Positions 39,001-64,000 of a stretch of DNA of 64,000 bases are shown here, piece by piece. The first letter of the stretch is position 1; each line of letters opens with the position of its first letter. A program made the translations under genes and the position numbers. Under the pieces are notes generated by a model. The model was not told where the DNA came from. It did no database searches and saw only the letters and a program-made list of their open reading frames with translations. This DNA comes from Eubacteriales bacterium (lineage in GTDB: Bacteria; Bacillota; Clostridia; Oscillospirales; QAKW01), in assembly GCA_045612565.1 (NCBI GenBank), contig JAZKZG010000094.1, positions 2,556 through 66,555 on the forward strand, read 5' to 3'.

Positions 39001-40277
39001 CAACCTATCAGTCAACTCCCGCAATTACTGTTACAAACAACAACCCCGCAGTGCTCTTACAGGCAGTTCAGGCACAGAACGAGGGCGCAGATAACTTTGA
39101 ATGTGAAGGCATCAAACAACTTTTGACAGTTGACACAAGCACACTTTCAAATGAAGAGGCACAAAATATTATCAGCGCAATCCGCACCGGCAAACACGTA
39201 ATGACTGACGTTGATGCTACATTGCCAGACTGTGAAAACGGCGGAAACAGCGCCCACAAGATATGTATCTACTGTGGACACAAAGAAGGCTTTGTTCCAA
39301 CTGAACCGAATGGTCACGAAACCGTTAAGGTGACAGGTAAAAAAGCAACCTGTACAGCAGATGGTTATAAAGATTACTTCAAGTGTGAAACTTGCGGTAA
39401 AATCTTTGCTGACGAAGCTGCTAAGACTGCAATTGCAGATCTCGAAGCATGGAAACTTGCAGACGGTAAGATTGCAAAAGTTGCTCACGTTTGGGGCGAA
39501 TATGTTTATAACAATGACGCTACAACCGAAAAAGACGGCACAAAGACTGCTAAATGTAACAACTGTGACGCTACAGACGTTAAGGTAGCAGAGGGTACAA
39601 AACTCGAAAAACCTGCAGATAAACCTGCAGATAAACCTGAAGACAAACCCGAAGAGAAGCCTGAAGAAAAACCCGAAGTTGAAATCAAAGATACTTCTAA
39701 GATCTTCAAAGATATCAAGGCTAAAGGCTGGTATAGAAATGCGGTTGACTATTGCTACAGCTACGGATTTATTGCAGGTACTGCAAAAGATACGTTTGGC
39801 CGCACAACCAACGTAACACGCGGTATGTTTATTACGGTTCTCGCGCGTATTGCCGGCGTTGACACAACAAGCAAGGGCGTTAATAAAGTTGAAACTAAGT
39901 TTACTGATGTTAAATCGGGCAAATACTATACTGCTGCTATCAAGTGGGCAAACGAAAATAGTATTGTAAACGGTACAAGCAAAACCACCTTTGGTCCCGA
40001 TAATGCAATCAGCCGTCAGGACCTTTGCGTAATGCTTGTGAACTATGCAAACTTTATGAAAGTTGACCTGAAGGCATCTGTAAAAGAACTTTCGTTCAAG
40101 GATGCAAAAACCATCAGAAAGTATGCAAAAGATGCCGTTAAGGTTTGCCAGATGGCAGGTATTGTAACCGGTTATGCAAACGGAAACGAGTTTGATTTCA
40201 AACCTCAGAATACCGCATCACGTGCCGAGGCTGCACAAATCCTTTATGTATTCCATCAAACCTTTATAGCAAAATAA
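33054..40277 (+). CDS. 2407-aa secreted SLH-anchored multidomain protein with three SGNH/GDSL hydrolase domains
   Basis: Signal peptide. Two long Asn-rich beta-helix-like regions. GDS(L) blocks 'KIACVGDSITE', 'KIAAMGDQTTYG', 'KIACVGDSITDG', each with a downstream 'D(G/R)LHPT' block. His/Cys modules, a (KPxD/E)n linker and three SLH repeats at the C-terminus. Confidence 0.8.
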   Translation: MKRIISWALTVMMIIGCLGSFSTAAFAAVDTSNPISITQWHDETGIIKDGFGVLVPDNTTTSTVEFVWQGGYYTATVGTDAFKTVAAARSAGKKQLILPALTYGKLDISGSIELYGNHFGKNPNVIGEDRTQDWTLNEEWKSNVTTVTGNINIQNVATPTSVKGTVIVIDGLKLNGSFMDNARNVSKYPTSIKLSNMHFGFTTSATRIFELANKNANNADESILNVDSFIVENSRFDYPNKTDSNRTFNEYSPKTLIVNNNYFGKGFSRLGWFKQQVSVKEGHLELSNNYFREGKYIINLCGGVNVFKGKYTDTNSVAKFNNNIVYNSAVDGALEIGPAYFASTEVMGNVFVDTKNLDKHAISTPIYNEMFAGVSYADVITIKGNRFVGVSDHLKLNEGTVSLSKDNANYHSMYTEDFANAQNGTQIYGALKDSDYYLDFNATTLASEAVMKADREGMSVVSKSNVASIVIAKDENYIPSLKTVKDVPFTLYSDKEHKNAVSTISGADVGDGRLYYARAITETNVVIDYTVVISAGDKNAPAYEGAYLLYDKTEDMPVGAKFVATYKGKEYTFTVGVDAFPSLAQISVQHKKDETINVIMLSGAYEGGYNVTGDFNIVGDNTVLKNGFKTDGPVKIACVGDSITEAVMYGGRATWGYPARLNDLLDASYGEGNYEVKNFGKGNSSLQQINTTTTTNLKTANRSQYNQGSWYYSALNYNPDVVMVMIGHNDTQVAETDHIYKSAANYKKYYVDLIESFKELPSNPQIIVVSCHARAAGFRGDLVERCIIPVQKELAERYNTIFVDTFTVTNGMKNAADGVYSTDGLHLTPKGYALLAGLIKDGTDGIYSSKRAVTLDGVTVDENAEVVTKTAKIKIAAMGDQTTYGSKSYINYPTALGQILGDGYEVRNYGECDITTKNYYTDKEYGEIGDYQSALAWKPDVAILGFGANNSTNTAFTNSYQSMIDELKAQGTKIYLLTSLKKSINTKITELAAANELEVIDIYTYAKENLSDYKLSTYLFDEVGNTKFAEFVAKEAFDVNPPEKATEFVLGGQQFKDYTSDYIPVTDAPLFTQRDDSALTIKNDAVAVIELASKKTSGDSIIARWDGQYYKFTVGVNAFGTLAEALSTDVKQIIVPTGLISKFEVTRSVEIYGANYNIHPWTVEGGEKVVQSADWGKYGESVIYQTDIVITKEAVGANILISGFRMTRGFNDTARPLSSENTSITLKNNILDRCFETGDFREFNLLNANNTNSSNTSVENNDEFTIKNMMFQNHSPNTGHALFQEQLPSFFTIDGFGCNSKMTTFGFPKWGYGTKQGKMTLKNCFIKDVNASSSRFPYLINFSGHFGSANLTDQQISNLDLSLEISNNTFIDCYTGGTDGAVIIWPASYTDIVVDGNTLVSTNDINNRGFQWKGQSDFRSNDKNFTDRITFKNNRIIGYIASHYVNDLTKLDLSDNYFETYTLSYRNGVTGDIPADIDANYYLDYKLTTRIGDMAPNSVNAIHALSVDNVTRTISGFATGDIAELGMSNDIGVEYTFYSDAECKNAITSLDVELGNASKAYVKAKRGNIQIVYTLYVIGIKDVADIGSADTNTTLEGIDDATLWYPSLYGAPNGIKVISYYDGKPVEFTTGVNVASSAGEMGLYGDDIIFPDNITEIDGLELVTAVNVYSAVANIKGIKMRKVKIACVGDSITDGVINGGRQDSYPTTMQNLLGTNSYDIQNFGGSGATAQYIEYLRLNANEGDRERQYRVLRKSMYEQSIAYNGDVVIIGLGANDSAVNEPVRWLSNYNFIDQYIDLIREYQSLPSKPAVYITTTTARYDQAVATVLIQENMRYIEQVIADITGAEIIDLNTLMDYMFKSTATEYSSDRLHPTAKGYHEMGKIIADEVTKTLAPIGENTITVNGGTVSGVIESSVAKTNLALNDNTLVIDSQIINGSNIVGVDLHNAVVKKNDKVVSEFDAAELITSGGSVKVDLGVADVETTYQSTPAITVTNNNPAVLLQAVQAQNEGADNFECEGIKQLLTVDTSTLSNEEAQNIISAIRTGKHVMTDVDATLPDCENGGNSAHKICIYCGHKEGFVPTEPNGHETVKVTGKKATCTADGYKDYFKCETCGKIFADEAAKTAIADLEAWKLADGKIAKVAHVWGEYVYNNDATTEKDGTKTAKCNNCDATDVKVAEGTKLEKPADKPADKPEDKPEEKPEEKPEVEIKDTSKIFKDIKAKGWYRNAVDYCYSYGFIAGTAKDTFGRTTNVTRGMFITVLARIAGVDTTSKGVNKVETKFTDVKSGKYYTAAIKWANENSIVNGTSKTTFGPDNAISRQDLCVMLVNYANFMKVDLKASVKELSFKDAKTIRKYAKDAVKVCQMAGIVTGYANGNEFDFKPQNTASRAEAAQILYVFHQTFIAK
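39609..39677 (+). repeat. 12-nt tandem coding repeat (KPADKPADKPEDKPEEKPEEKPE linker)
   Basis: AAACCTGCAGAT x2, then degenerate AAACC(T/C)GAAGA(C/G) units. Confidence 0.8.
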
Positions 40278-50732: not shown

Positions 50733-52577
50733 ATGATCAAAAAAGAAAATAAGACACGTTTTTTAAATATGACAACACTAACGATTGCAGGTGTTTTATT
50801 GATATTGCTCTCAGCTGTTATTTTGTTGTGGCACGGCAATGCAACCAGTAATCAATCCGTATCGGCTTTAGTGGCTCAGATATATTTTGACGGCGAGTAT
50901 CGTATTGCTGACGGTGACTGGCAGAAAATCGAAGACGGAAAACACATTTCTTCTACAGAGGGAGATGTGACCCTGCGAGGTAATTTCCACATGTTAGCAC
51001 CGGATGGTGAGTATGTTGGTATTTATAGTGGTGATATTCCGATTGCTCTTTATACAAATCATATTAACCTTACATTTTATGAGAAGGAAAAAGAACCCTT
51101 TATAATAGATGTGGAAAATCATTTATACGGAAATTCTGCCTGTCACGAGGATTGGACCGCTCATACTATTACAAGCGAAGAACCAATCGAGATACTTATT
51201 CATAATCCACATAGTTTTGGCAATGAAACTGCCATTGACGAGATGCTTTCCAACACGGCTTTATGGACGGATATTGAGTTTGAAAAAGGAGTTCTTGAAA
51301 GCGGAAGATACCAAAGAGATATCGGTTTGTTGTTTGTTATTGTTTCTCTTTTGTTTTTGGGAACTGCCCTGTTTTCGACACTTATACATATAAAAAACAA
51401 CAAGACACTTTGGTTATTCGGCATCGTAATTTTGTTTGCCGGCGCATACCTGTTATATGGTGCTGACGGCGTGTCTTTCTGGAGCAAATCCGTTGTATCA
51501 AATACGACGATTTTGGGATGCTCAATGATGTTCTATATGCTCTTCCTTTCTATTGCGCTTGTACACTTTTTGAGAAGTACAAAATCAATTGGTACAATTG
51601 CCGTTGCACTTCTCGGTTTTGTTAACTTGGTTTTTTTAATTCTGCCTATCTTAACGGATATTTTGTTTTATGATATGTGGGTTTATTGGGCTGCTGCTCA
51701 AATACTTGTAAACATTATTTTGTTTGGATGCCTTATACGAGAGTTTTTTGTTACAAAGGGAAAAGAACGTTGGCTTTATATCGGCCTGATTTTGCCGCTT
51801 ATCTCTTTTGGCGTTGATGTTATTATGACTGACCTTGGATTATGGCAGGGCGGACTTGCATCTGAATACATTTTTATTGTTTTCTTTATTGCCGCTATGG
51901 TAGCAGTGCTTAAAGTCATACCAAACAGCATCAACACTCTTGCCAAAGCCAAAGATTTGGAAACCGAGAAAATCATATTAAATGCTCAGCTTACCGAAAG
52001 CAGAGTTTCTACTATGATGAGTCAGATTCGTCCGCACTTTATTTATAATACCCTCGGCAGTATCGAACAACTTTGTAATATTGATCCGCCAAAGGCAGGA
52101 GAACTCGTTCATAACTTTGCGAAATATCTTAGAGGTAATTTTGGAGAACTGGATAATCCCAAGCCGATTTTGATGTCAAAGGAAATGGAGCACGTACATC
52201 ATTACATTAGTATCGAAAATGTCCGTTTCCCCGATATGACGTTCTCCTTTGTAATGAATTCGGACGATTTTTATATTCCTGCACTTACTATTCAGCCAAT
52301 TGTAGAAAATGCGATTAAGCACGGACTTATGAAATTGCAAAAAGGCGGTACAATCCGTGTAATTTCCTATGAGACCGATAGCCATTACTGTGTTTCGGTG
52401 GAGGATGACGGTGTGGGATTTGATACGGCTGTTTTGCTTGACGAAAGAAAACACGTGGGAATCCGTAATATTCGCGGAAGATTAAAGGCGATGGTAAATG
52501 GAACCCTTGAAATCGAAAGCACACAGGGCGTTGGTACCAAGGTCCTGATAACTATTCCTAAGGAGGCAGGCGAATGA
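50733..52577 (+). CDS. LytS/YesM-type sensor histidine kinase
   Basis: Signal-anchor, ~180-aa extracytoplasmic domain and ~6 TM helices. His_kinase box 'RPHFIYNTLGSI'. GHKL ATPase (ENAIKHG...DDGVGF...GVGT). Confidence 0.85.
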   Translation: MIKKENKTRFLNMTTLTIAGVLLILLSAVILLWHGNATSNQSVSALVAQIYFDGEYRIADGDWQKIEDGKHISSTEGDVTLRGNFHMLAPDGEYVGIYSGDIPIALYTNHINLTFYEKEKEPFIIDVENHLYGNSACHEDWTAHTITSEEPIEILIHNPHSFGNETAIDEMLSNTALWTDIEFEKGVLESGRYQRDIGLLFVIVSLLFLGTALFSTLIHIKNNKTLWLFGIVILFAGAYLLYGADGVSFWSKSVVSNTTILGCSMMFYMLFLSIALVHFLRSTKSIGTIAVALLGFVNLVFLILPILTDILFYDMWVYWAAAQILVNIILFGCLIREFFVTKGKERWLYIGLILPLISFGVDVIMTDLGLWQGGLASEYIFIVFFIAAMVAVLKVIPNSINTLAKAKDLETEKIILNAQLTESRVSTMMSQIRPHFIYNTLGSIEQLCNIDPPKAGELVHNFAKYLRGNFGELDNPKPILMSKEMEHVHHYISIENVRFPDMTFSFVMNSDDFYIPALTIQPIVENAIKHGLMKLQKGGTIRVISYETDSHYCVSVEDDGVGFDTAVLLDERKHVGIRNIRGRLKAMVNGTLEIESTQGVGTKVLITIPKEAGE

Positions 52578-53353
52578 TTGCAATAGCAGTTGACGACGAA
52601 ATATTAATGCTTGGTGCTTTGGTAACAGCAATTAAAGCATCACCCGATATCTCTGAAGTTTCTCAGTTTTCCGACTGTGATGAGGCTCTTACATTTGTGA
52701 AAGAAAATTTGGTTGATGTTGCCTTTTTGGATATTAATATGCGTGGTATGGGCGGACTTGCACTTGCAAAAAAGATACTTAATGCGTGTCCCGATTGCAA
52801 AATTGTATTTTGTACAGGATATGAGGAATATGCTATTCCCGCCTTTAAATTACATGTCTCAGGATACTTAATGAAACCTGTATCAGCCAAAGACGTGCAG
52901 GCAGAGATTGATAATATAAAAGGTATTCGTCAAAAAGAAAAACCGCTTACAGTGAAATGCTTTGGTAATTTCGAGGTCTATGCAAAAGGTGAAAAGTTGA
53001 CGTTCAGACGTTCAAAAACAAAAGAACTGTTTGCGTTTTTGATTGACCGAAACGGTGCAGGGGTTACGGTTGCAGAAATTGGAGTTGCACTCTGGGAAAA
53101 TGATGAAGAGGAAAAAAACCAAAACTATATCCATCAATTATTTCGCGATCTGCGCCAAACTCTTGAAGCAATTGGTATGGAAGAGATTTTTGAGCGAAAC
53201 AACTATCTCTATTCTGTGAATACCGAGAAAATTGATTGTGATTATTATAATTACTTAAAAAGCGGAAAGCCTGAATTTATCGGCGAGTATATGTCTCAGT
53301 ATAGCTGGGCAGAAGGAACTTGCGGATTGCTTTGGGATAGAAAAACTAAATAA
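52574..53353 (+). CDS. response regulator with SARP/BTAD-like winged-helix output
   Basis: Receiver domain (DDE...FLDINM...K). Output 'CFGNFEVYAKGEKLTFRRSKTKELFAFLIDRNGAGVTVAEIGVALW'. ATGA overlap with the kinase gene. Confidence 0.8.
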   Translation: MIAIAVDDEILMLGALVTAIKASPDISEVSQFSDCDEALTFVKENLVDVAFLDINMRGMGGLALAKKILNACPDCKIVFCTGYEEYAIPAFKLHVSGYLMKPVSAKDVQAEIDNIKGIRQKEKPLTVKCFGNFEVYAKGEKLTFRRSKTKELFAFLIDRNGAGVTVAEIGVALWENDEEEKNQNYIHQLFRDLRQTLEAIGMEEIFERNNYLYSVNTEKIDCDYYNYLKSGKPEFIGEYMSQYSWAEGTCGLLWDRKTK

Positions 53354-53366
53354 ACCTACTTGTTAA

Positions 53367-53396
53367 GATAAGCCGTCTGTTTGACGGCTTATTTTT
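53367..53396 (+). terminator. rho-independent terminator of the two-component operon
   Basis: ATAAGCCGTC-tgttt-GACGGCTTAT followed by TTTTT. Confidence 0.75.
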
Positions 53397-53562
53397 TATT
53401 TGTAAGAAGTTTGTCATACCGTAAATGATATACTGAAGCGGAAAATAGGGTAACTATGCCTTGTAGCAGATGTTAAGGCTTTAATTTAAACGAAATAAAC
53501 ATAAATTTCTTTAAAAAAGATGAAAAAATGTGATTAAAAAGATATAAAGGAAATTTAATTGT

Positions 53563-53859
53563 ATGACTATTGAAATTAAGAAAAACAATCAGGAAACCAT
53601 CATCGAGGTTGTAGGAAGACTCGATACTATTACTGCCCCCGCACTTGACAAAACTATCAACGAGGATATCGGAGATACCAAAAACCTTGTTATTGACGTA
53701 AAAGGTGTGGAGTATATCTCCAACGCAGGACTTCGTGTGCTTCTTGATGCACAGAAGAAAATGCAGAAGGTCGGTTCTATGAAAGTGACGGGTGTTTGCC
53801 AAGAGGTTATGGAAGTATTCGATATGACAGACTTTGCCGATATTTTGGTAATTGAATAA
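53563..53859 (+). CDS. STAS-domain protein (anti-sigma-factor antagonist family)
   Basis: 98 aa. 'VVGRLDTITAPALDKTI...VIDVKGVEYISNAGLRVLL', with the conserved phosphorylatable Ser context (YISNAG). Confidence 0.85.
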   Translation: MTIEIKKNNQETIIEVVGRLDTITAPALDKTINEDIGDTKNLVIDVKGVEYISNAGLRVLLDAQKKMQKVGSMKVTGVCQEVMEVFDMTDFADILVIE

Positions 53860-53970
53860 TGGAACTTATGGCCCCTGCTTTTTTTACTGTATATTCAATC
53901 GTTTTTTTGCGGTTGGATTGCTGTAAAAATAAATTACGATATTAGACCCAAAATCGAAGGTGAATATATA

Positions 53971-55566
53971 ATGAATGAAAATAAATTATTAATGAAACAA
54001 AAATTTAATAAAACACATTCTATGCAGTTTCGTGTTTTGGCTACCATAATTTTCGCAATGCTTACAATAACGGTTTTTATTGGTGGCATCAGCATTTACG
54101 AGGTGGACCAATACATACAGGATGAGTCGGAAAACTTTGTTGTGGTTGCTTGTGAAAATGAAGGCACACAGATTGACGATATTTTTGATGATATGGAAAA
54201 ATCGGTCAAGATTATGGAAAGCTACATAATGGACTTTTTTACCGAGGACGTCATTGTGGAAGATCGCAATTTTCAGGAAAAAGTTGTCAATAGTACCGAC
54301 AAAATGTTTGCCGAAGTTGCCAAACACGCAAGTGGTGCAGTTGCCTATTATTTTCGGTTAGACCCTGCGATTTCAGATGGTAAAATGGGATTGTTTTATA
54401 GCAAAACAAAAGAAAATGATGAATACGTTTCTTTGGAACCAACCGATATCTCACTTTATGAAAAAGAAGATACCGAACACGTTGGTTGGTTTTGGCAGCC
54501 TTACCAAGCCGGAAAACCTGTCTGGATGTTGCCTTACTATAACCAAAATAACAATATTTATATGATTTCATATGTGGTACCGATGTATCATAAAGAAAAA
54601 CTTATTGGCATTGTTGGAATGGATTTTGATTATACGGTTTTATCAGACCGCGTACACGAAATTAAAATTTATGAAAATGGATTTGCTCATTTAGAAACCA
54701 ACGGAGTTGTTATTCATGACGACAGTGTGCTTGATGAAAAAATCACACACGATCCAAATAAATATCTGCGCGTATCAAAAGAGTTGAAAAACGGAATGAC
54801 GCTTGTTATTTCTGCAAGTTATGATGATATCCGACAAATTCGATATGAAATCAGTATTGTGATTTTGTTTGCTGTTTTAATACTGTCTGCGTTTTTTACA
54901 GTGGTGGCAATTATTGTTGTCAAGAGAATCGTTGCCCCACTCAAAAAAATTGTCGATGCGGCGGTAAAACTATCAAATGGGGATTATGATGTAGAATTTG
55001 TACATAGTAACGTTTCCGAAATAGAACTTTTAAACACGGCTTTTGAAAATATGGCAACGCATTTACACGAGCGCGAACGAGAATTGAGCTTTTCTGCCAA
55101 ACGTGACTCTCTTACGGGTCTTAGAAATACCACATCGTATAAAAGTTGGGTAGAAGAGTTTGAAAAAGAGATTGAAAATAAAACCGCAGAGTTCGGTGTT
55201 GTTGTTTTTGACTTAAATCAACTTAAGGAAACGAATGATACATATGGACACGATGTAGGCGATAAACTTATCGTTACTGCCGCAAAAGTGATTTCGGATG
55301 TTTTTAAAAGAAGCCTCGTTTTCAGAATAGGCGGAGATGAGTTTTTGGCGGTTCTTCAACACAAAGATTTAGAAAACTGCGAAAAATTATTTGCTCAGTT
55401 TGATTTGGAATGTATAAAGACACGTATTGAAGAAACACCTATCAGCATTGCAAGAGGTTTTGCAAGGTTTGACCCGGACCGCGATTTATACTTTAATGAC
55501 GTATTTAAACGTGCAGATAATGCTATGTATGAAAACAAGAGAAAAAGCAAAAAAGTTACGGTTTAA
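53971..55566 (+). CDS. Cache-like sensor / HAMP / GGDEF diguanylate cyclase
   Basis: TM, ~260-aa extracytoplasmic domain, TM, HAMP (VAPLKKIVDAAVKLSNGDYD), GGDEF (DLNQLKETNDTYGHDVGD...FRIGGDEFLAV). Confidence 0.85.
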   Translation: MNENKLLMKQKFNKTHSMQFRVLATIIFAMLTITVFIGGISIYEVDQYIQDESENFVVVACENEGTQIDDIFDDMEKSVKIMESYIMDFFTEDVIVEDRNFQEKVVNSTDKMFAEVAKHASGAVAYYFRLDPAISDGKMGLFYSKTKENDEYVSLEPTDISLYEKEDTEHVGWFWQPYQAGKPVWMLPYYNQNNNIYMISYVVPMYHKEKLIGIVGMDFDYTVLSDRVHEIKIYENGFAHLETNGVVIHDDSVLDEKITHDPNKYLRVSKELKNGMTLVISASYDDIRQIRYEISIVILFAVLILSAFFTVVAIIVVKRIVAPLKKIVDAAVKLSNGDYDVEFVHSNVSEIELLNTAFENMATHLHERERELSFSAKRDSLTGLRNTTSYKSWVEEFEKEIENKTAEFGVVVFDLNQLKETNDTYGHDVGDKLIVTAAKVISDVFKRSLVFRIGGDEFLAVLQHKDLENCEKLFAQFDLECIKTRIEETPISIARGFARFDPDRDLYFNDVFKRADNAMYENKRKSKKVTV

Positions 55567-55657
55567 AAACGATTTGAAGCCCAGTTACTTTGTAAGATGA
55601 CATATTATAAAATGTAAGATCCGCAAGGAAATCGCCTTTTGAAAGGAATCTTGGAAT

Positions 55658-56056
55658 ATGACGGATAAAGAATTTAAACGCTTAAGCAGAGCGCAGTTGA
55701 TTGAGATTATCTATCAACTCCAATTGCAAATCGACCAACTGAATGAGCAAAAGCAAGGTTTGGAAAGCGAATTAGCAGACAAACGTCTTCGTTTGAGCGT
55801 TGCCGGTAATATTGCTGATGCAGCCCTTGAAATTAATGATTGCTTCCGTAGTGCACAAAATGCAGCAGAACAATATTTAAATGAAATTAAAGCTATCCGT
55901 GAAGAAACCGAACAAGAGCGACAGACGATAATTTCGGAGGCACGAGCGCAAGCGGAGGAAATCATTGCGGACGCAAAAAAGACGCATGGCGATTACGATT
56001 CTGCGATAGATACGATTTTGAATGAATTTAGGCAGAGTCATTCGGATAACGGGTGA
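55658..56056 (+). CDS. hypothetical coiled-coil protein
   Basis: 132 aa, heptad-rich and charged. Its stop overlaps the signal peptidase start region. Confidence 0.5.
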   Translation: MTDKEFKRLSRAQLIEIIYQLQLQIDQLNEQKQGLESELADKRLRLSVAGNIADAALEINDCFRSAQNAAEQYLNEIKAIREETEQERQTIISEARAQAEEIIADAKKTHGDYDSAIDTILNEFRQSHSDNG

Positions 56057-56061
56057 TAGAT

Positions 56062-56649
56062 ATGTTACATAGTAAGAAAAAGGAAGTATCGCTTCCAACA
56101 AAAAAGCAGGTTGAAACAGAACGAAAGCGATACCGCCGTCAAAAAGCCTATAATAAAGCCCTGCGCGGAACAGTATACGTTTTAACGATAGTAGCCGCTG
56201 TTGCCGTGTTGATTGCAACACTGATATTACCTGTTTTGCAAATTGAGGGAACCAGTATGGAGCCGACGTTATCAAACGGTGATATCGTGTTACTTGCAAA
56301 AACAACCCGTTTTGACCGCGGAGATCTTTGCGGATTCACCTGGAACAACAAACTTTTAATAAAACGAGTAATTGGTCTGCCGGGTGATTGGATTGAGATT
56401 GATACCGACGGAACGGTATACCTCAATGGCGATAAATTGGAAGAACCTTATGTGGAACATAAGGCTTTGGGAGAATGTGATTTAGAGTTTCCTTTTCAAG
56501 TGCCGCTGGAGCAGTATTTTGTAATAGGAGATATGCGTGAAAGTTCTATCGACTCTCGCAATACGGTAATTGGATGCATTCCAAAAGATCAGATTGTCGG
56601 AAAAGTTTTCTTTAGAGTATGGCCGTTTAAGAGCATACGATTTTTTTAA
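56062..56649 (+). CDS. type I signal peptidase (S26)
   Basis: TM anchor, catalytic-Ser box 'EGTSMEPTL', Lys box 'IKRVIGLPGD', 'GDMRESSIDSR'. The start could be GTG 56053 or ATG 56062. Confidence 0.85.
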   Translation: MLHSKKKEVSLPTKKQVETERKRYRRQKAYNKALRGTVYVLTIVAAVAVLIATLILPVLQIEGTSMEPTLSNGDIVLLAKTTRFDRGDLCGFTWNNKLLIKRVIGLPGDWIEIDTDGTVYLNGDKLEEPYVEHKALGECDLEFPFQVPLEQYFVIGDMRESSIDSRNTVIGCIPKDQIVGKVFFRVWPFKSIRFF

Positions 56650-56682
56650 ATAAACAATGTATTTATAAAAGGACAAGCGTTT

Positions 56683-59600
56683 ATGAGTTTCATTGAACAA
56701 TACTTGTTACAATTGAATACCGAAAAACGACGATGGCGATGTGCTATAGCAATTTTAACAGCATTGTCACTCATCGTTGCGCTTGTTACCGTGTGGAATT
56801 TGCGTATGACAGGCATTACGATTGCAAACAGCGCATCTTGCGGATATGAGGAACACCAACATACAGAAGATTGTATGCAACAAGACGTCCTGATTTGCAC
56901 TGTGTCGGAGCATATTCACAAAGCCGAATGTTATTCCGATCCTAAAGCGGATACTGAAACTTCATTAGATTGGCAAAATATGTTTGCCAACTACCCTTAT
57001 ACAGGTGTTGTTCGAGAGGATTTAGTCGGCATCGCCAAAACTCAGGTGGGATATACTGAGAGTCAGTTGAATTTTGAAGCCGGAGACGACGGTGTACGGC
57101 GTGGTTATACAAGGTATGGCGCATGGTACGGAGCGCCCTATAACGATTGGTCTGCAATGTTTGTGTCGTTCTGTCTGAACTTTGCAGGAGCGGATTGTTC
57201 GGTATTTCCTAACAGTTCCGGCGCTGCAATGATGGCAGAACTTTGGAAAACACACGAAAAGTATATTCCTGCGGGAGATTATGTTCCGCAAAGCGGAGAT
57301 ATTGTATTTTTTAATAACAACACTGTAGGTATTATTACTGAAATATTTAACACCAATTTTTATGTAATCCGTGGTGATGTACAGAATAAAGTTACCAATG
57401 ATATGATGTCGCTGAATGACCCGTCTATTGTTGGCTGGGGATGCACAGAAACACCTGTTCACAGCGATAATGTACCGACAGATGACTTGTTGGATATATC
57501 AGACGGACCTGCTTTTTTCATTATAGAAGGAAACAAGATAGAACAACCGGCACGAAGATTTACCTTGAGAGCTAACCGTGCAATTATGCAACTGATTCCT
57601 TATCTGGAAGCCAACGGCGGTAACTATTTTTTAACATTGTTGGACCTTAACAATAAGGAACTGCCCAAAGATGAAAACGGAAATTACATTGCTGTAGCTA
57701 ACGAAGGCTATAAGTTGACCCTCACCTTTAATAGCCCGAAGGGATTTTTACCGGGAACGTATCAGTATCAGATTTCCAACGGAATGATGGTAGATGGCGG
57801 TAACGGCGAATTTGTTTTGACTGACGGAACCAAAGTTGGTACCTGGGAGGTCTCTGATACGGGTCTTATTACTCTTGAGTTCAACGAGCAGATAAATAGC
57901 CGTACGGACATAACTATTAGTTCAACGCTTGGTATCCACTTTCAAGAGCAGGATGACCTTATTGATTTTGACGGTTTAATCACTGTTAAGATTGAGCCGC
58001 CCGTTCAGCAAAAGGACCCAACTGTTTTGTCAAAATGGGGTTCTCCCAACTCGAGTGCGAAAAAAATCAATTGGACGGTGCGAATTGACGGACATACGGA
58101 TTCGCAGATTCCCGGTAACATTCTTACCGACCAACCCACACTAAGCGATTGGAGCAGACCACATAGTTATACACAATCAGACATAGATGGCGGTCTGACC
58201 TTTGGTGTTTCAGACCCGACGGGAGGATGGCATGCATGGACTGTTCACGCTGACGACCCACATCTTGTATGGGATGAAACGGGATGGTCCTATAAGATTC
58301 CCAAAACTGTTATATGCGACTATTGCGGACAACTGGAATTGGGCAATGATGGGTGGTCCTATCTTATAAATTATACGTCTACCCCCACAGAACTCAACAC
58401 TCCCGGTACCTTTGACTATGAGAACAAGGTCACAGTGGATGGCCAGACAGCATGGGGCTGGAGTAATTTCACTCATGTTGAGATTGAGGCGCAGATCGTT
58501 AAGACAGGCTCTTTTGTATCCGATGCAACCGGAGGCGGTTTCCTTTGGGAATTCCAGGCTACAATACCGGGACGTCAGGAAGGACAGAGAGCAGAGTATT
58601 CCTGGTTTATTATGGATGAGATGCGTCTTATGGATGATAAAGGCACAATCATAGGCCGTGTACAAAATGATGTCAATCTGTCTACAGTTACGGCAGTCTA
58701 TAATGGAACGGTTATCCAAATTCCACGCATTCAGGATGCTACGGACGAGGATATGTTCGCCTGGGACAATGCTTGGACAGCAACAGAAAATGGTGTCGGT
58801 TACAACCGAACGATAAATCTCCTTTGTCGATGCCAATGTACCACTGAAACATGCCATTGGTCAGGATGCGGAGACTATTGGTTCCAGAAAGATAACGGTG
58901 AATGGGCTGCCAACGGTTTTTGTCAGTGCTGGACAGAAACACAGAATATGACGTTTACTTTTGTTTACAAAACCGAGGATATATCCTTAATTAAAGATTA
59001 TGGTTCTCTTGATTATAAAGTAAACAATCATGCGCAACTGTACTATATGCCCGATGGCAGCAACTCTGTCAGGGTTGATTATGATGATGCGACGGTCACT
59101 ATTCCAAATCTGTTTGAAAAGCAGCTTACCCATGATTTTAACGGCTATACCGCTCACTATAAAATCACGGTGAACGAAGCCAAATTGGTGCTGACAAACG
59201 GTTCACCATTAACAATTCACGATGCTATGACCGATACATTGGCGTACATAGGCGGTTCGCTTGTTATTACAACCGAAAATGCAAACGGCCACACAAGTGT
59301 CTTGCAGCAAGGTGTGGATTATACCGTCACTTATGATGGTACAGGAAATCAAACGGATTCTGCGGGTAAAAAAGTGCATGTGCTGGATATTGTTATTCTA
59401 AAACCGCAACCGGTTATGTATATCCTTGATTATGATACGACACTCATTATGCCGGAGCATATAACAGGCGGTGTTAAGTATAGTAACTCCGCAAATATTA
59501 CGCTTTGGGGCAAGGATGTTACGAATAACGCTGTCGAAAAGGTGTATGCCGATATTAATATTGCCGCCAAGAGTTATGCCGTCGAAATGTCTAAGACTTG

Positions 59601-60066
59601 CGCACTGACCAACAAAGCGCTTTCGGGAGCAACATTTGGTCTTTACAATGCGCAAGGCGGTTTGATAACTTCAGGTGTGACAGATGCTGACGGAAAACTG
59701 GTATTCCGTACTAATATCATAGAAGGCATCGTTTTGCAAGAACATAAGTTGTACTATTTGCAGGAAATTCAACCGCCACCGGCTTATCAATTGGATGATA
59801 CAAAGTATTGGTTCTGTTTCTGCAGTGATAAAGGCAATACTTGTGTCGAATGCAACAAGCTTATGATAGATGTGGAGGCTGTTCGTATTCCGTTTGAGCA
59901 AATTGGTCTTATCAATATTGTTAACTATCCTGCCAATGTAGAATTGCCCGCCACAGGCGGTATTGGCACGTACATTTATATACTATGCGGACTAACGCTT
60001 GTGATTGGGCCGCTTGTATACGGATTCAGCTTGAGGCGCAGATATGGAAGGAGGTCAAAAAAATAA
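56683..60066 (+). CDS. 1127-aa LPATG-anchored pilus tip/adhesin-like protein with degenerate CHAP-like domain
   Basis: N-terminal signal anchor, two C-x4-H-x-H-x3-C knuckles and a CHAP-like region (aa ~100-240). C-terminal Cna-B/E-box-like 'YYLQEIQPPPAY'. Sorting signal 'LPATGG' plus hydrophobic stretch plus RRRYGRRSKK. Confidence 0.75.
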   Translation: MSFIEQYLLQLNTEKRRWRCAIAILTALSLIVALVTVWNLRMTGITIANSASCGYEEHQHTEDCMQQDVLICTVSEHIHKAECYSDPKADTETSLDWQNMFANYPYTGVVREDLVGIAKTQVGYTESQLNFEAGDDGVRRGYTRYGAWYGAPYNDWSAMFVSFCLNFAGADCSVFPNSSGAAMMAELWKTHEKYIPAGDYVPQSGDIVFFNNNTVGIITEIFNTNFYVIRGDVQNKVTNDMMSLNDPSIVGWGCTETPVHSDNVPTDDLLDISDGPAFFIIEGNKIEQPARRFTLRANRAIMQLIPYLEANGGNYFLTLLDLNNKELPKDENGNYIAVANEGYKLTLTFNSPKGFLPGTYQYQISNGMMVDGGNGEFVLTDGTKVGTWEVSDTGLITLEFNEQINSRTDITISSTLGIHFQEQDDLIDFDGLITVKIEPPVQQKDPTVLSKWGSPNSSAKKINWTVRIDGHTDSQIPGNILTDQPTLSDWSRPHSYTQSDIDGGLTFGVSDPTGGWHAWTVHADDPHLVWDETGWSYKIPKTVICDYCGQLELGNDGWSYLINYTSTPTELNTPGTFDYENKVTVDGQTAWGWSNFTHVEIEAQIVKTGSFVSDATGGGFLWEFQATIPGRQEGQRAEYSWFIMDEMRLMDDKGTIIGRVQNDVNLSTVTAVYNGTVIQIPRIQDATDEDMFAWDNAWTATENGVGYNRTINLLCRCQCTTETCHWSGCGDYWFQKDNGEWAANGFCQCWTETQNMTFTFVYKTEDISLIKDYGSLDYKVNNHAQLYYMPDGSNSVRVDYDDATVTIPNLFEKQLTHDFNGYTAHYKITVNEAKLVLTNGSPLTIHDAMTDTLAYIGGSLVITTENANGHTSVLQQGVDYTVTYDGTGNQTDSAGKKVHVLDIVILKPQPVMYILDYDTTLIMPEHITGGVKYSNSANITLWGKDVTNNAVEKVYADINIAAKSYAVEMSKTCALTNKALSGATFGLYNAQGGLITSGVTDADGKLVFRTNIIEGIVLQEHKLYYLQEIQPPPAYQLDDTKYWFCFCSDKGNTCVECNKLMIDVEAVRIPFEQIGLINIVNYPANVELPATGGIGTYIYILCGLTLVIGPLVYGFSLRRRYGRRSKK

Positions 60067-60153
60067 GTCCTCCCCAAATGGCGTAAAATCAAATTTATGC
60101 GCCTGACTGATTCCAAAATAATATAAAATTTATTTTTAGAAAGGAAAATCATT

Positions 60154-61956
60154 ATGAAAAAGTTTTTATCCATCATTATGGTGTTGGCAATAGTTCTTTC
60201 TTTGTGTGTTACCGCTTTTGCGGCAGATAACAAAGGTTCTATCACCATCACTAACGCAACCATCGACGAAACCTACGCAATCTACAAAATCTTCGATGCA
60301 ACTATCAGCAAGGATGCCGGTGGAAACACAAAAGCGGTTTCCTATAGTATTACAACCGACAACCAATTCTTTGCCGCTCTCTTCGGTGCTGACGGCAAGA
60401 CAGAAAACCTCTTCTTTGTGTACAATAGCAACACAGGCTCTGTTACAAAGAAGGAAGGTGTCAACGATGCAGAACTGATAAAGTATCTGACCGAATTAGT
60501 TGAAAACGGCACTTACGCCACTGCCGCTACACCTGTCAAGGCTACCAATGAAGAAGTGAAGTTTGAGGATCTGCCCTATGGTTATTACTTAATCACCAGT
60601 TCTTTGGGCACAACTGTAACTATCAACTCAAATACTCCTGACGTTAAAGTAATTGATAAAAACCAGAAGCCCGGCAGCGGTTTTGATAAACTGATACAAA
60701 ACGGTGTGGATGTTAACGGAGATCCCATTTGGGCTGAATCTAACTCCGCTAATATAGCTGACGAGGTAACTTACAAAATTTCTTTTGAAGCAACCAATTA
60801 CGACGGCGAAAACAAGATCAAGTACTACCAGATTCATGATGAAAAGGGCGAAGCAATCTGGGCAGAATTTAACAGTTTTGAAGTTTATGTTGACGGTGTG
60901 AAACTTGAGAGAGGTTACTATCTGTCTCAGGGCGGAAATAATACTGATAACTGGGAATATTTCGGCGACTGGACCGGTACAGAGAAGAATCGTAACAACG
61001 CACAGTGGTACCTGGTACATCTGGACTATGACAAGTTCCGTATCACTATTCCGTGGTTGGAAAATCACACTCTTTCCAATGTTACCAACGATGTTGGAGA
61101 AATCACATCTTATTCTGTGAACTTCCCCGAGAATGCCGAATCTAAATTTGATTCTCCCGTTCAGGTAGAGATTATCTACAAAGCGGTAGTTGAAGCAAAT
61201 GCTGCTATCGGTGATACAACCCATGGTAACCGTTACAACAAGGCTTATGCTTCTTGGACAAGTGAACACGAAACTGATTCTACCAAACCTGAAGAGGTTG
61301 TAACCTATGTTTACGGTATCGGCTTACTTAAAGACGACATTGCTACCCGTGAGAATTTGGCAGGTGCTAAGTTCCGTATCTACAAGGATGAGGCATGTAC
61401 TCAGCCACTCAATGTAATTCCTACAAAGATTGACGGTGTTTACATCGTTGATAGTTTAGGTACCGCTGCGGAAAATATTAGCGGCATTATGCAAGAAACC
61501 ACTCGTAAACTGTACGAGGCATATCTGGCAGAATATTTGAAGGATGATAACGGTAATACTATTGAAAAGAATAACCTTGTTGTCTCACAGGCTAACGGTA
61601 AGTTGGCTATCCTTGGTCTTAAGGAAGGCGCTTACTACCTTAAGGAAGTAGAGGCTCCCGACGGCTATAACGCTCTGACTCAGCCTGTTAAATTTGAGGC
61701 AGGTAAAGATATCCGCCCATTCAGCATATTTGCTGACGAGAACGGCAATGTTGCTGATATTCAGGAAGAAGATGGTGTACATACCGAAAATCGTTACGAC
61801 CTGACACATACTGTTGTTCACAACAGCAAGGGTGTTGTGTTGCCTTCTACAGGCGGTATGGGAACTTTCTGGCTTATTACCATCGGCACTTTACTTGCTA
61901 TTGGCTTTGCTGTGTTCCTTATCACTCACAAAAAGATGTCTGTTTATACTGACTAA
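60154..61956 (+). CDS. backbone (major) pilin-like isopeptide-domain protein, LPSTG sorting signal
   Basis: Signal peptide ending in 'AFA-AD'. Pilin-motif-like 'DVKVIDKNQKP'. E-box 'YYLKEVEAPDGYN'. 'LPSTGGMGTFWLITIGTLLAIGFAVFLITHKK'. Confidence 0.8.
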   Translation: MKKFLSIIMVLAIVLSLCVTAFAADNKGSITITNATIDETYAIYKIFDATISKDAGGNTKAVSYSITTDNQFFAALFGADGKTENLFFVYNSNTGSVTKKEGVNDAELIKYLTELVENGTYATAATPVKATNEEVKFEDLPYGYYLITSSLGTTVTINSNTPDVKVIDKNQKPGSGFDKLIQNGVDVNGDPIWAESNSANIADEVTYKISFEATNYDGENKIKYYQIHDEKGEAIWAEFNSFEVYVDGVKLERGYYLSQGGNNTDNWEYFGDWTGTEKNRNNAQWYLVHLDYDKFRITIPWLENHTLSNVTNDVGEITSYSVNFPENAESKFDSPVQVEIIYKAVVEANAAIGDTTHGNRYNKAYASWTSEHETDSTKPEEVVTYVYGIGLLKDDIATRENLAGAKFRIYKDEACTQPLNVIPTKIDGVYIVDSLGTAAENISGIMQETTRKLYEAYLAEYLKDDNGNTIEKNNLVVSQANGKLAILGLKEGAYYLKEVEAPDGYNALTQPVKFEAGKDIRPFSIFADENGNVADIQEEDGVHTENRYDLTHTVVHNSKGVVLPSTGGMGTFWLITIGTLLAIGFAVFLITHKKMSVYTD

Positions 61957-61981
61957 TTTTTGACTTACAAAAATATCGGGT

Positions 61982-62009
61982 GGGAGGAGAGAAGTTCTGC
62001 TCTCCTCCC
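61982..62009 (+). promoter_or_regulatory. perfect 10-bp GC-rich hairpin between the pilin and sortase genes
   Basis: GGGAGGAGAG-aagttctg-CTCTCCTCCC. No U-tract follows. Confidence 0.6.
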
Positions 62010-62038
62010 GCTAAAACTATAACAGAAAGGAGATGCCT

Positions 62039-62905
62039 ATGAGAAAGCATAAGACTGTAATTATTTTAACCGTTGGTTTTTTGGTAGGTATCTGCATTCT
62101 GTTATATCCCGCATCCAGTGATTTTTGGAACAGCAAAACCCAAAGCCGAGCAATTACTGACTATGAATCTGTTTTGGATACCCTTGATGAAAATGACTAC
62201 AATGCTCTTTTTGAAAGTGCCCATGCTTACAACAAGGCGTTGTATGAAACGAATTATCCGTTGATAGATTATAGAAAAGTGCCGGGGTACTACGACACTC
62301 TTCGCATAACCGATAATGATATGATAGGCTATTTGAAGATTGAGCGTATTGGCGTGGAACTTCCAATTTACCACGGCACATCGGACGATGTTCTTAACAG
62401 AGGTGTAGGTCATCTGGAAGGGAGCAGTTTGCCTGTGGGCGGAGAAAATACCCATAGTGTTATGTCTGCTCATAGGGGATTGCCCAGTTCAAAACTGTTT
62501 ACCGAACTTGACCGTGTAGAAAAGGGCGATACCTTTCAGATTGTAATACTGAACCAAGTTCTGACATATCAAGTTGATTTTATAAAAGTAATAGAACCTA
62601 ATGATGTTTCGGATTTGAATATTATTGAAGGCGGTGACTATTGCACTCTGTTTACCTGCACACCCTATGGCATCAATACACATAGGTTGCTGGTACGGGG
62701 CGTAAGAATTGAAACAATCAAAGAAAAACCTATGATTTATGTCTCCAACGAGGCATTTCGTATAGAACCGCTATTGGTAACTCCTGCGGTTGCGGCACCT
62801 ATGCTTTTGGTGTTACTGATTCACTTGCTTGTTAAGTATAGAGAACCGCCTAAAAATACGCAACAAAAGAAAAAAGAGGAAGGAGGTACAGAAAGTGACC
62901 CGTAA
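62039..62905 (+). CDS. class C (pilus-polymerising) sortase
   Basis: N-terminal TM, 'TLFTCTPYGINTHRLLVRG' catalytic Cys box, C-terminal TM helix typical of class C. ATG 62039 has the better GGAG spacing; 62033 is possible. Confidence 0.9.
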   Translation: MRKHKTVIILTVGFLVGICILLYPASSDFWNSKTQSRAITDYESVLDTLDENDYNALFESAHAYNKALYETNYPLIDYRKVPGYYDTLRITDNDMIGYLKIERIGVELPIYHGTSDDVLNRGVGHLEGSSLPVGGENTHSVMSAHRGLPSSKLFTELDRVEKGDTFQIVILNQVLTYQVDFIKVIEPNDVSDLNIIEGGDYCTLFTCTPYGINTHRLLVRGVRIETIKEKPMIYVSNEAFRIEPLLVTPAVAAPMLLVLLIHLLVKYREPPKNTQQKKKEEGGTESDP

Positions 62906-63764
62906 AATCACAACCTTTTGTGTAACAATATTACTGCTTTTAACTTGTTATTTATCGGCTTTTGCAGAAGAATTCGACCAAAGCAAAACCGGGTCTATAT
63001 CTGTTACGCTTATCGAACAAAAACAACCGATTGTTGGAGCAGAACTTAGTGTCTATTATGTTGCAACCGCTTTATTGGATGCAGACAGAAATTTGATTTA
63101 TGACTATACTAAAGAATTTAAACAGATTGATACTGCAATTGATGATACGTCACTTGCCGCAAAACTGGATGCGTTTGTATCTTTGCACAGTGTACCTTCT
63201 GTTAAAATAACAACCGATACTGACGGCACGGCGTTGTGCAAAGAACTTCCTTTAGGACTTTATTTTGTCAAGCAGACAGGTGCAGTAGAAGGCTTTTCAC
63301 CCTGTACGCCCTTCCTTGTAACAGTTCCTAATGAAAAGAATGGTGTATATGTGTACGATGTAAACGCTTCTCCAAAAACAGAAGTCGAAAGACTCACTTC
63401 TATCACCATAAAAAAGGTGTGGAATACCGATAAATCCACCGAGGCAACTCAAAGTGTTACCGTTCAGTTGCTTAAAAGTGGAAATGTAGTCAAGACGGCA
63501 ATTCTTGATGTTAAAAACGATTGGCAAGTAACTTATGACGATATGCCTGTAAGCGATGCTTACAGTGTCAAAGAAGTAGACGTGCCGAAAGGGTTTACTG
63601 CAACTTATAAGCAAAACGGTTATATTTTCACAGTTACTAATACTTCGACTTTAATACAAACCGGTCAGTTGATGTGGCCGATTCCTGCGTTGGCAATGGG
63701 CGGTATGCTTTTAATTGCGGTAGGTATTGTGCTGTTACAGAAAAAGAGGAAAACAAATGCGTAA
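62895..63764 (+). CDS. small Cna-B-type pilin (minor/basal) with non-canonical LIQTG sorting signal
   Basis: GTG at 62895 follows AGGAGG and overlaps the sortase 3' end. Signal peptide '...CYLSAFAEE'. 'LGLYFVKQTGAVEGF' E-box-like, 'VNASPKTE', and 'LIQTGQLMWPIPALAMGGMLLIAVGIVLLQKKRK'. Confidence 0.7.
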   Translation: MTRKITTFCVTILLLLTCYLSAFAEEFDQSKTGSISVTLIEQKQPIVGAELSVYYVATALLDADRNLIYDYTKEFKQIDTAIDDTSLAAKLDAFVSLHSVPSVKITTDTDGTALCKELPLGLYFVKQTGAVEGFSPCTPFLVTVPNEKNGVYVYDVNASPKTEVERLTSITIKKVWNTDKSTEATQSVTVQLLKSGNVVKTAILDVKNDWQVTYDDMPVSDAYSVKEVDVPKGFTATYKQNGYIFTVTNTSTLIQTGQLMWPIPALAMGGMLLIAVGIVLLQKKRKTNA

Positions 63765-64000
63765 ATGGATAGGTGTAATATGTGTTTTCCTTGGTGTTGT
63801 TTGCATACTGAGTTCTGTCGGCTTGATAGTATACAATAGGTGGCAAGACAAAAATTCAAAAAAGACAGCTCAATCTCTTCTTGAGGATATACGAAGTATA
63901 ACCGATGAGAAAACACCCGGACCTGAATATACAGAAATGGCTACCATTAAAGTGGACGATTATGACTGTATCGGCGTTCTTTCGGTTCCTGTATTAGATT
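63757..64000 (+). CDS. second sortase, N-terminal part (runs off the window)
   Basis: ATGCGTAA start/stop overlap with the previous gene. MRKWIGVICVFLGVVCILSSVGLIVYNRW... then 'DCIGVLSVPVLD', the typical first beta-strand region of sortases. The catalytic region is not in the window. Confidence 0.6.
   Translation, partial: MRKWIGVICVFLGVVCILSSVGLIVYNRWQDKNSKKTAQSLLEDIRSITDEKTPGPEYTEMATIKVDDYDCIGVLSVPVLD

Follow-up and report, generated by a model that had tools for sequence, protein, structure and literature searches.

In bifidobacteria, lactobacilli and pathogens, sortase-assembled pili serve as major structures of colonisation and of recognition by the immune system, and to our knowledge almost nothing has been learnt of them in the gut's abundant and uncultured Oscillospirales. 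Here we describe a sortase locus at the end of a 64,000-nucleotide stretch of DNA (the window) from an uncultured Clostridia lineage (Eubacteriales bacterium, contig JAZKZG010000094.1), which likely encodes a heterotrimeric, covalently linked, sortase-dependent pilus with the layout of the PI-2b pilus of group B Streptococcus (GBS). The PI-2b operon consists of orf (a small conserved hypothetical gene), lep (a putative signal peptidase), ap1, spb1, srtC1, ap2 and srt2 (PMC5249243). The seven-gene order of the window operon is identical, with its first gene at the position of orf, and the architecture is therefore already known rather than unprecedented, as the same order has been published for PI-2b (PMC5249243). 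Two proteins were also compared by sequence: the class C sortase with 4d7w (E = 4e-61) and the backbone pilin with Spb1/BP-2b (4uzg, E = 1.5e-4), the latter also matching by fold, from a poor model. The database labels 4d7w only as a "sortase family protein", which we take to be SrtC1 of PI-2b. The window system differs from PI-2b in its host, which is not a streptococcus, in its 1127-aa tip with Cys/His knuckles and a CHAP-like module, and possibly in its base-pilin signal, LIQTGQ-x-WPIP. For the dispensability of sortase A in anchoring PI-2b pili, a review cites Lazzarin et al. 2015.

Other described pili share parts of this plan. The Cpp pilus of Clostridium perfringens (CppA with SrtC) is itself a Clostridial sortase pilus, CppA (5xcc, 6ixy) ranking high among the matches of the window backbone by sequence and by fold, and 6ixz a strong match of the class C sortase (E = 4e-50). 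C. perfringens VR-10B encodes CnaA-FimA-FimB along with a signal peptidase plus a sortase of class B, its base pilin bearing a signal for a non-housekeeping sortase (PMC8088525). VR-10B thus likewise has a signal peptidase but, unlike the window locus, a class B polymerase, and descriptions of Cpp and VR-10B mention neither an LxQTGQ signal nor a small sortase of the window clade at the end of the locus. The FCT-type pili of Streptococcus pyogenes (cpa-sipA-fctA-srtC-fctB), anchored by housekeeping sortase A, are like the window locus in content (peptidase homologue, tip adhesin, backbone, pilus sortase and base pilin), and the S. pyogenes T6 protein (4p0d) is a fold match of the poorly modelled window backbone. 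SipA-type proteins of S. pyogenes are chaperones without catalysis, SipA itself having no catalytic Ser or Lys, whereas the window peptidase keeps both motifs. In the SpaA-type pili of Corynebacterium diphtheriae the base-pilin signal LAFTG is read by the non-polymerising housekeeping sortase SrtF, which ends growth and anchors the fibre. This is the same logic as proposed here, and the lysine of the window small pilin aligns to the YPK of SpaD; however, SrtF is a class E enzyme of general use, with many substrates and a gene elsewhere, whilst the window enzyme is small, unclassified and encoded beside its substrate.

Evidence for a pilus comes from the class C sortase together with the backbone. 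The 290-aa sortase scores 256.8 bits against NF033745 (cutoff 160), has 4d7w and 6ixz as its best solved relatives and matches 21 class C structures at E < 1e-30; it carries H147 (SAHRG), C209 (TLFTCTP) and the Arg in LLVRG, has membrane segments at both termini, and is encoded with its substrates, between backbone and small pilin. Pilus assembly is what defines class C sortases (Table 1 of PMC8225981). The 600-aa backbone carries a signal peptide, an E-box (E498) and LPSTG, and matches the SpaH/EbpB major-pilin model NF033902 over aa 3-590 (E = 1.1e-22; 80.5 bits against a cutoff of 95), with a PF17802 SpaA-type domain (2.1e-14). Its C-terminal domain matches CppA, Spb1, RrgB and EbpB in PDB sequence searches, and its first domain (D1) gave only chance-level matches in the same search (E > 0.4). 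The AlphaFold model of the backbone is poor (mean predicted local distance difference test (pLDDT) 52.6) and each of its 30 best fold matches is a pilin of a Gram-positive bacterium; the alignments behind our AlphaFold models were shallow (at least 70% identity), and the fold searches are indicative only. These results bear on a reading in which there is no pilus, the three LPXTG-like proteins being separately anchored, monomeric adhesins of the MSCRAMM type (microbial surface components recognising adhesive matrix molecules) served by two sortases. The fold matches of the tip are indeed mostly monomeric MSCRAMMs, the backbone stays under the curated major-pilin cutoff, and the structure models of the candidate pilin domains are poor. 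Yet the sortase belongs unambiguously to the class defined by pilus assembly (PMC8225981), the 600-aa protein matches the major-pilin profile end to end with all of its 30 best fold matches among pilins, candidate acceptor lysines are conserved at the D1/D2 junction, and the gene order equals that of a proven pilus operon; we regard separate monomers as scarcely credible.

The element of the locus that may be new is its second, small sortase and the signal paired with it. The window breaks off within this gene, and the 81 residues that it holds match no family in Pfam or NCBIfam. A 193-aa protein (P0335) is identical to them over all 81 residues, matches Pfam Sortase and carries the motifs AAHNY (H116), LYTCT (C174) and RVTVRC; it has an N-terminal membrane anchor only, ending 8 residues past RVTVRC with no hydrophobic tail. 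Its longest contig is given the same length, 80,993 bp, as that of the backbone and tip proteins 100% identical to those of the window, in keeping with an origin from the source contig. Because of this identity and these motifs, the gene is a sortase, as the first-pass annotation had claimed for the sixth of its six genes, a claim borne out only through full-length P0335 and not by the 81 residues themselves. An open-reading frame (ORF) of 190-200 aa occupies the same position in 14/14 related loci, the orthologue in locus L004 scoring 47.1 bits against PF04203 Sortase (cutoff 26.6), and in 40 diverse members of the family H116, T173 and C174 are invariant and R181 nearly so, as in the sortase superfamily. 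The enzyme falls well below the cutoff of each sortase class model that it matches: class E, the best of the NCBIfam classes (49.6 bits against 160), class C (43.9 against 160, and without the C-terminal anchor), SrtD (LPxTATN; 41.3 against 140), class GN (23.8 against 158) and class D (23 against 165). No other NCBIfam sortase class model matched at E 0.01 or better, and an assignment to class B was rejected because no match to a class B model was present. As a single sequence the enzyme barely matches solved sortases (E = 7e-4); the profile of the 40-member family lies at much the same distance from structures of classes C, D and A, its best match being the class C enzyme 24rr (E = 5.5e-16). 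The family comprises 3100 representative clusters at E <= 1e-3 and 700 at E <= 1e-30.

We surveyed the ORF directly upstream of the second sortase in 94 loci, the 14 related loci plus 80 metagenome loci found from a 10-sequence family alignment; the sortases fell into 34 clusters at 85% identity, in 31 of which the upstream ORF was readable. It ends in L-x-(Q/D)-T-G-(Q/M) in 31/31 clusters, with I, V, A or P at position 2, and LxQTGQ is followed by x-W-P-(I/V)-(P/W) in 29 of them and specifically by WP(I/V)P in 28. The pairing is kept down to 38-45% sortase identity, and the two signal classes are disjoint in every locus, tip and backbone bearing LP(A/S/G)TGG and the small pilin L(I/V/A/P)QTGQ. 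The order backbone, class C sortase, small pilin, second sortase persists in the distant loci L026, L030, L033, L038, L082 and L084. Two small-pilin homologues stand out: L011:328-1161 holds the 5' part of a homologue with three in-frame stops (a pseudogene or an assembly error) upstream of an intact sortase, and L013:10873-11200 has a masked run of N over the end of the homologue, making it the only well-flanked locus in which the sorting signal is unreadable.

The sortase/signal pair also occurs in other surroundings. In L052:981-8588 and 52 near-identical human-gut contigs (L032-L094), a type very common in the human gut, it closes a pilus locus with a class-B-like sortase; in order this locus has an LLPDTG adhesin, a coiled-coil ORF, a signal peptidase, a 356-aa pilin ending IDTG, the class-B-like sortase, a 259-aa LIQTGQ protein with a Pro-rich tail and, last, the small sortase. 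In L025:2124-8636 and L066:2401-8669 vWA and TasA/camelysin-like genes adjoin the small sortase and its LIQTGQ protein, which here has two repeats of Cna_B; this is a different surface system with the same anchoring pair and no pilus sortase.

The small sortase and its signal thus appear common to class-C and class-B pilus types, which would fit a general job in anchoring base pilins. In GBS, Srt2 reportedly anchors the PI-2b fibre through the minor ancillary pilin, and on balance we lean towards a similar role here, the second sortase anchoring the base pilin, and hence the finished fibre, to the wall. A different division of labour would make the small pilin and the second sortase a separate module, which either builds a second thin fibre through K161 and LIQTGQ or scatters the small pilin along the shaft. 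The small pilin does possess a set of parts for self-polymerisation (a sorting signal, a sortase to itself and a lysine that aligns with SpaD YPK), pairs of sortase and LxQTGQ protein exist with no class C sortase nearby (L024, L025, L056 and L066), and it is a class C enzyme, 24rr, that the family profile matches best. However, where no class C or class B sortase is present the LxQTGQ substrates are without a pilin-motif domain, those of L025 and L066 having their Cna_B repeats after an unrelated N-domain, and in the L052 type the substrate is short and Pro-rich-tailed rather than carrying such a domain. The second sortase furthermore has neither the C-terminal membrane anchor nor more than 44 bits against the class C cutoff of 160, and it comes last, after a base-pilin-like gene, as in GBS PI-2b. 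We consider a separate module unlikely.

More tentatively, and with somewhat less confidence than we place in the anchoring role, the enzyme could represent an undescribed sortase class of ~190-220 aa with an N-terminal anchor only, a portable pilus-anchoring enzyme that gut Clostridia share between class-C pili, class-B pili and further surface-protein loci. Its cognate signal would be L-x-Q-T-G-Q-x-W-P-(I/V)-P, with Pro optional at position 2 and the residues after the cleavage site conserved. In the literature searched, which was incomplete in coverage, we found no mention of a sorting signal LIQTG, LVQTG or (L)PQTGQ. The novelty of the sortase clade and its signal depends on comparison with GBS Srt2 and AP2-2b. 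The pairing allows the surface proteins handled by the second sortase to be predicted by a simple rule, and may offer an orthogonal sortase/tag pair for protein ligation.

The product of the sixth gene, the putative base pilin, consists of a PF17802 SpaA-type N-domain, aligning to the first domain in two major pilins, SpaD (4hss) and Spa2 (7woi), and a PF05738 Cna_B C-domain, aligning to Cna B repeats. Its K161, in NASPKTE (aa 157-163), aligns with the SpaD YPK lysine ("WNYNVVAYPKN" against "VYVYDVNASPKT"), and S159, P160 and K161 are invariant, relatives of 35-40% identity included; L253, T256, G257 and Q258 of the sorting signal are likewise invariant. The first-pass annotation had listed pilin-motif-like lysines in two substrates, and both lie at invariant positions. 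Its E-box-like motifs in all three substrates hold for the tip and the backbone; that of the small pilin, LYFVKQTGAVEGF (aa 122-134), has an invariant Gln (Q127) at the position expected for Glu, and the N-domain probably forms no isopeptide bond of the E-box type. The Glu-bearing motif of the small pilin lies instead in the Cna_B domain (YSVKEVDVP, E227). Reading isopeptide triads from the canonical pattern of first-strand Lys, E-box Glu and last-strand Asn, we find invariant candidates in K173 or K174/E227/N249 of the small pilin and in K393/E498/N557 of the backbone, whose E-box domain aligned to CnaB-type domains of 4oq1 and CppA.

In the backbone, K169 and K172 are both invariant and lie within VIDKNQKPG (aa 166-174). 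The linking lysine of GBS BP-2b is K175, by mutagenesis, in the motif VTPNATIHEKN (PMC4420484). The backbone context NTPDVKVIDKN resembles this motif when compared by eye, with the common, non-canonical pattern ...TP..x.[IV]x[DE]KN, and K169 is the favoured candidate because of this likeness. K172 is the alternative, since in a weak hhalign alignment of the backbone and small-pilin N-domains (E = 3e-4, probability 39%) K161 falls two residues after K172.

The tip has more than 1600 homologues, all unnamed or "hypothetical". Only its last domain (PF17802, Table 1) is recognisable by sequence; it aligns to BcpA (3rkp/3kpt), with the E-box-like motif YYLQEIQPPPAY (aa 1024-1035) included, and offers a candidate triad K971/E1028/N1081 that is invariant in 30 homologues. 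PDB sequence searches with the tip N-terminus gave chance-level matches only (E > 0.4), and the low-confidence AlphaFold model (mean pLDDT 52.1) has MSCRAMMs as its best fold matches (SdrD, UafA, FnBPA, SdrE, ClfA and Cna), followed by pilins. In L007:3246-7124 and L009:2316-7172 the tip centre (~aa 255-930) is replaced by unrelated sequence whilst the first ~255 residues and the C-terminus are kept, as might be expected of a ligand-binding tip. At the N-terminus C53, H58, H60, C64, C72, H77, H79 and C83 of the two C-x4-H-x-H-x3-C motifs are invariant in the 30 homologues, and the motifs may bind metal. Such motifs (C-x4-H-x-H-x3-C(Y), as CGxEEHxHTxxCY) occur in 2 to >10 copies at the N-termini of tip-like surface proteins, with copy number varying among L013:367-6867, L084:911-4873, L025:2124-3095 and L029:1214-3835, and no Pfam family matched them. 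The CHAP match of the tip (E 3.5e-4 to 9.5e-4; 20-21 bits) lies below the 26-bit Pfam gathering cutoff; the L007 homologue, ~50% identical over this region, also matches CHAP. On our reading of the CHAP consensus, S157 stands at the expected Cys position (Ala in L007, Gly in L013) and T214 at that of the His (Thr or another residue in homologues), so neither is conserved; the region would be at most a degenerate relative and, if related to CHAP, not an enzyme. Other sub-threshold matches, C-terminal of the CHAP-like region, were to Big_8, Collagen_bind and Sgo0707_N2.

The seven genes form a predicted operon on the + strand from 55658 to beyond 64000 (Table 1), overlapping or 33-88 nt apart. 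The stop of the first gene overlaps the peptidase GTG at 56053 (an alternative ATG at 56062 would leave a 5-nt gap after the first gene instead), the small-pilin GTG lies 11 nt within the class C sortase gene with AGGAGG 7 nt upstream, and ATGCGTAA at 63757-63764 is the start/stop overlap of small pilin and second sortase. A consensus scan found no + strand terminator-like site between operon genes, its sole such site lying within the tip gene, and promoter-like matches occurred at no higher rate than in shuffled sequence. Within the 64-kb window a C-terminal sorting motif with a hydrophobic stretch and basic residues behind it is confined to tip, backbone and small pilin. Our ORF call and motif search placed each ORF, overlap, sorting signal and motif of the first-pass annotation where it had been given. 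Its reading of the locus as a sortase pilus is supported by the class C sortase, the pilin family scans and the PDB sequence matches (the scans and matches also agreeing with the roles it gave to tip, backbone and small pilin), and its class C sortase and signal peptidase score above the NF033745 and TIGR02227 cutoffs. Its locus start at 56053 needed correction to 55658, as an extra gene lies upstream whose stop overlaps the peptidase start and which is conserved in relatives. This is probably the first gene of the operon, coupled in translation to the peptidase; its product gave only weak, sub-threshold DivIVA-like matches in a Pfam scan, and in loci L002, L003, L004, L006, L007 and L009 it is kept directly upstream of the peptidase at 68-82% identity. 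L052-type loci have a different small coiled-coil ORF before the peptidase (L052:4064-4525).

The peptidase matches Pfam Peptidase_S26 (1.2e-36) and, at 130.6 bits, passes the equivalog cutoff of TIGR02227 (47); its Ser and Lys motifs, GTSMEP (aa 66-71) and IKRVIG (aa 103-108), contain the SMEP and KRVIG of active P-type type I signal peptidases. A SipA-like dead chaperone was considered and rejected because these motifs are intact. Identity is 90-95% in close relatives and 52-58% in the distant L084 and L013, where the gene still adjoins a tip-like gene.

We infer the mechanism of assembly from the identities of the genes, the split of the signals into two disjoint classes, the conservation of the lysines and the strict linkage of sortase and signal, combined with the canonical model of sortase-pilus assembly summarised in PMC8088525. 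The three precursors would be exported and their signal peptides removed, possibly by the locus peptidase, for which the long atypical leader of the tip is the likeliest client, and a C-terminal hydrophobic tail would hold each precursor in the membrane. The class C sortase would cut LPATG and LPSTG after Thr, linking tip to backbone K169 and then backbone to backbone through the same lysine, whilst CnaB-type domains would lock themselves by Lys-Asn isopeptides at the candidate triads. Growth would stop once K161 of the small pilin receives the last backbone Thr. The LIQTGQ of this pilin would not be used by the class C enzyme; the second sortase would then cut LIQTGQ and move the whole fibre to the wall precursor. 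With its variable MSCRAMM-like Ig domains the tip may bind a ligand from host, diet or bacteria, and would carry the catalytically dead CHAP-like module and the two Cys/His knuckles at its far end.

Several points weigh against this account. Polymer, cleavage and anchoring are predicted here from sequence alone; both AlphaFold models are poor (52.6 and 52.1), which leaves most pilin folds and the isopeptide geometry as candidates, the backbone scores under the curated major-pilin cutoff (80.5 against 95 bits), its acceptor lysine may be K169 or K172, and the CHAP assignment in the tip is sub-threshold. The part played by the peptidase is read from gene linkage, which persists to L013 and L084, and the enzyme might be the general signal peptidase of the cell. 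The role of the second sortase is likewise read from linkage, and it could attach the small pilin elsewhere or polymerise it; the likening of this sortase to GBS Srt2, and of the small pilin to AP2-2b, is by gene order.

A scan of species-representative genomes gave the 14 related loci, mostly in metagenome-assembled genomes (MAGs) labelled Acutalibacteraceae or Faecousia, with some homologues labelled Oscillospiraceae. The full seven-gene block is present in the same order in the six loci that keep the first gene, and eight more hold partial blocks, most of the other contigs being too short for seven genes. The enzymes are well conserved in relatives (peptidase 90-95%, class C sortase 78-91%) and the backbone less so (52-90%). 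From locus to locus the identities of tip and backbone form a mosaic (89/69% in L004, 74/90% in L001), which together with the swapped tip centre points to recombination among pilus alleles; the variability of tip and backbone alleles suggests pressure from host or phage. Flanking genes differ on both sides between relatives whilst the seven genes stay together. Such varying flanks, the mosaic identities and the CHAP-like module and Cys/His repeats at the tip would also suit cargo of a mobile or conjugative element, whose fibre serves mating-pair or cell-cell aggregation and whose CHAP-like tip binds or cuts the peptidoglycan of a partner. However, no relaxase, type IV secretion system, integrase or replication gene was seen among the neighbours examined, in flanks not scanned systematically, a plasmid collection gave no match to the second sortase, the upstream STAS gene is shared with L006, and the expected CHAP catalytic residues are not conserved. 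The PI-2b-like pilus that we favour is itself compatible with a role of binding in aggregation, and we judge mobile-element cargo highly improbable.

The locus is a known kind of system with a known operon layout in a lineage, the Acutalibacteraceae/Oscillospiraceae-like MAGs, where it is unstudied. Our understanding of pilus assembly is unchanged by it, the layout being already known from GBS PI-2b, but it supplies a complete, conserved and apparently common parts list, with hundreds of close homologues in gut metagenomes. Our literature searches, incomplete in coverage, found no paper on sortase pili in Acutalibacteraceae or Oscillospiraceae, in keeping with the first-pass remark that pili of this build in Oscillospiraceae-like gut bacteria are essentially uncharacterised.

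Table 1. Positions of the operon genes, their motifs and other features in the window.
Feature	Position	Strand	Basis or remark
First gene, 132-aa coiled-coil ORF, predicted cytoplasmic	55658..56056	+	ORF call
Type I signal peptidase, 198 aa from GTG 56053	56053..56649	+	ORF call and family scans
Tip adhesin precursor, 1127 aa	56683..60066	+	ORF call; tail ...VELPATGG, hydrophobic stretch, RRRYGRRSKK
Two C-x4-H-x-H-x3-C motifs of tip	56839..56931	+	aa 53-64 and aa 72-83
Degenerate CHAP-like domain of tip (candidate), aa 152-229	57136..57369	+	Pfam CHAP, sub-threshold
C-terminal SpaA/CnaB-type stalk domain of tip	59581..59832	+	PF17802, 5.7e-10, aa 967-1050
LPATG sorting motif of tip, aa 1088-1092	59944..59958	+	LP(A/S/G)TGG in relatives
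Backbone (major) pilin precursor, 600 aa	60154..61956	+	ORF call; tail ...VLPSTGG...
Candidate pilin-motif Lys K169 of backbone (NTPDVKVIDKN; K172 alternative)	60658..60660	+	
E-box YYLKEVEAPDGY of backbone, aa 494-505 (E498)	61633..61668	+	
LPSTG sorting motif of backbone, aa 563-567	61840..61854	+	LPSTGG in every related locus
Class C sortase, 290 aa	62033..62905	+	ORF call and family scans
Small two-domain pilin, 289 aa from GTG 62895	62895..63764	+	Tail ...TLIQTGQ...
Pilin-motif Lys K161 of small pilin (YDVNASPK)	63375..63377	+	
LIQTGQ sorting signal of small pilin, non-canonical, aa 253-258	63651..63668	+	Followed by LMWPIP
Second small sortase, 5' part, 81 codons from ATG 63757	63757..64000	+	Runs off the window
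LytS-type histidine kinase, response regulator, STAS-domain protein, Cache/HAMP/GGDEF diguanylate cyclase	50733-55566		Directly upstream of operon
SLH protein, 2407 aa, GDSL esterase and three SLH	33054-40277		
SLH protein, 479 aa, C-terminal SLH triplet	26433-27872	-	
BspA-type leucine-rich-repeat protein, 1137 aa	5987-9400		No SLH match

The LytS-type kinase, response regulator, STAS and GGDEF genes upstream of the operon are possible regulators; only the STAS gene is common to a relative (L006), and an Rfam scan of 53000-64000 found no riboswitch, including no cyclic di-GMP element after the GGDEF gene. Elsewhere in the window, the two large SLH proteins described in the first-pass annotation are both present as SLH proteins, but only one of them is large (Table 1).

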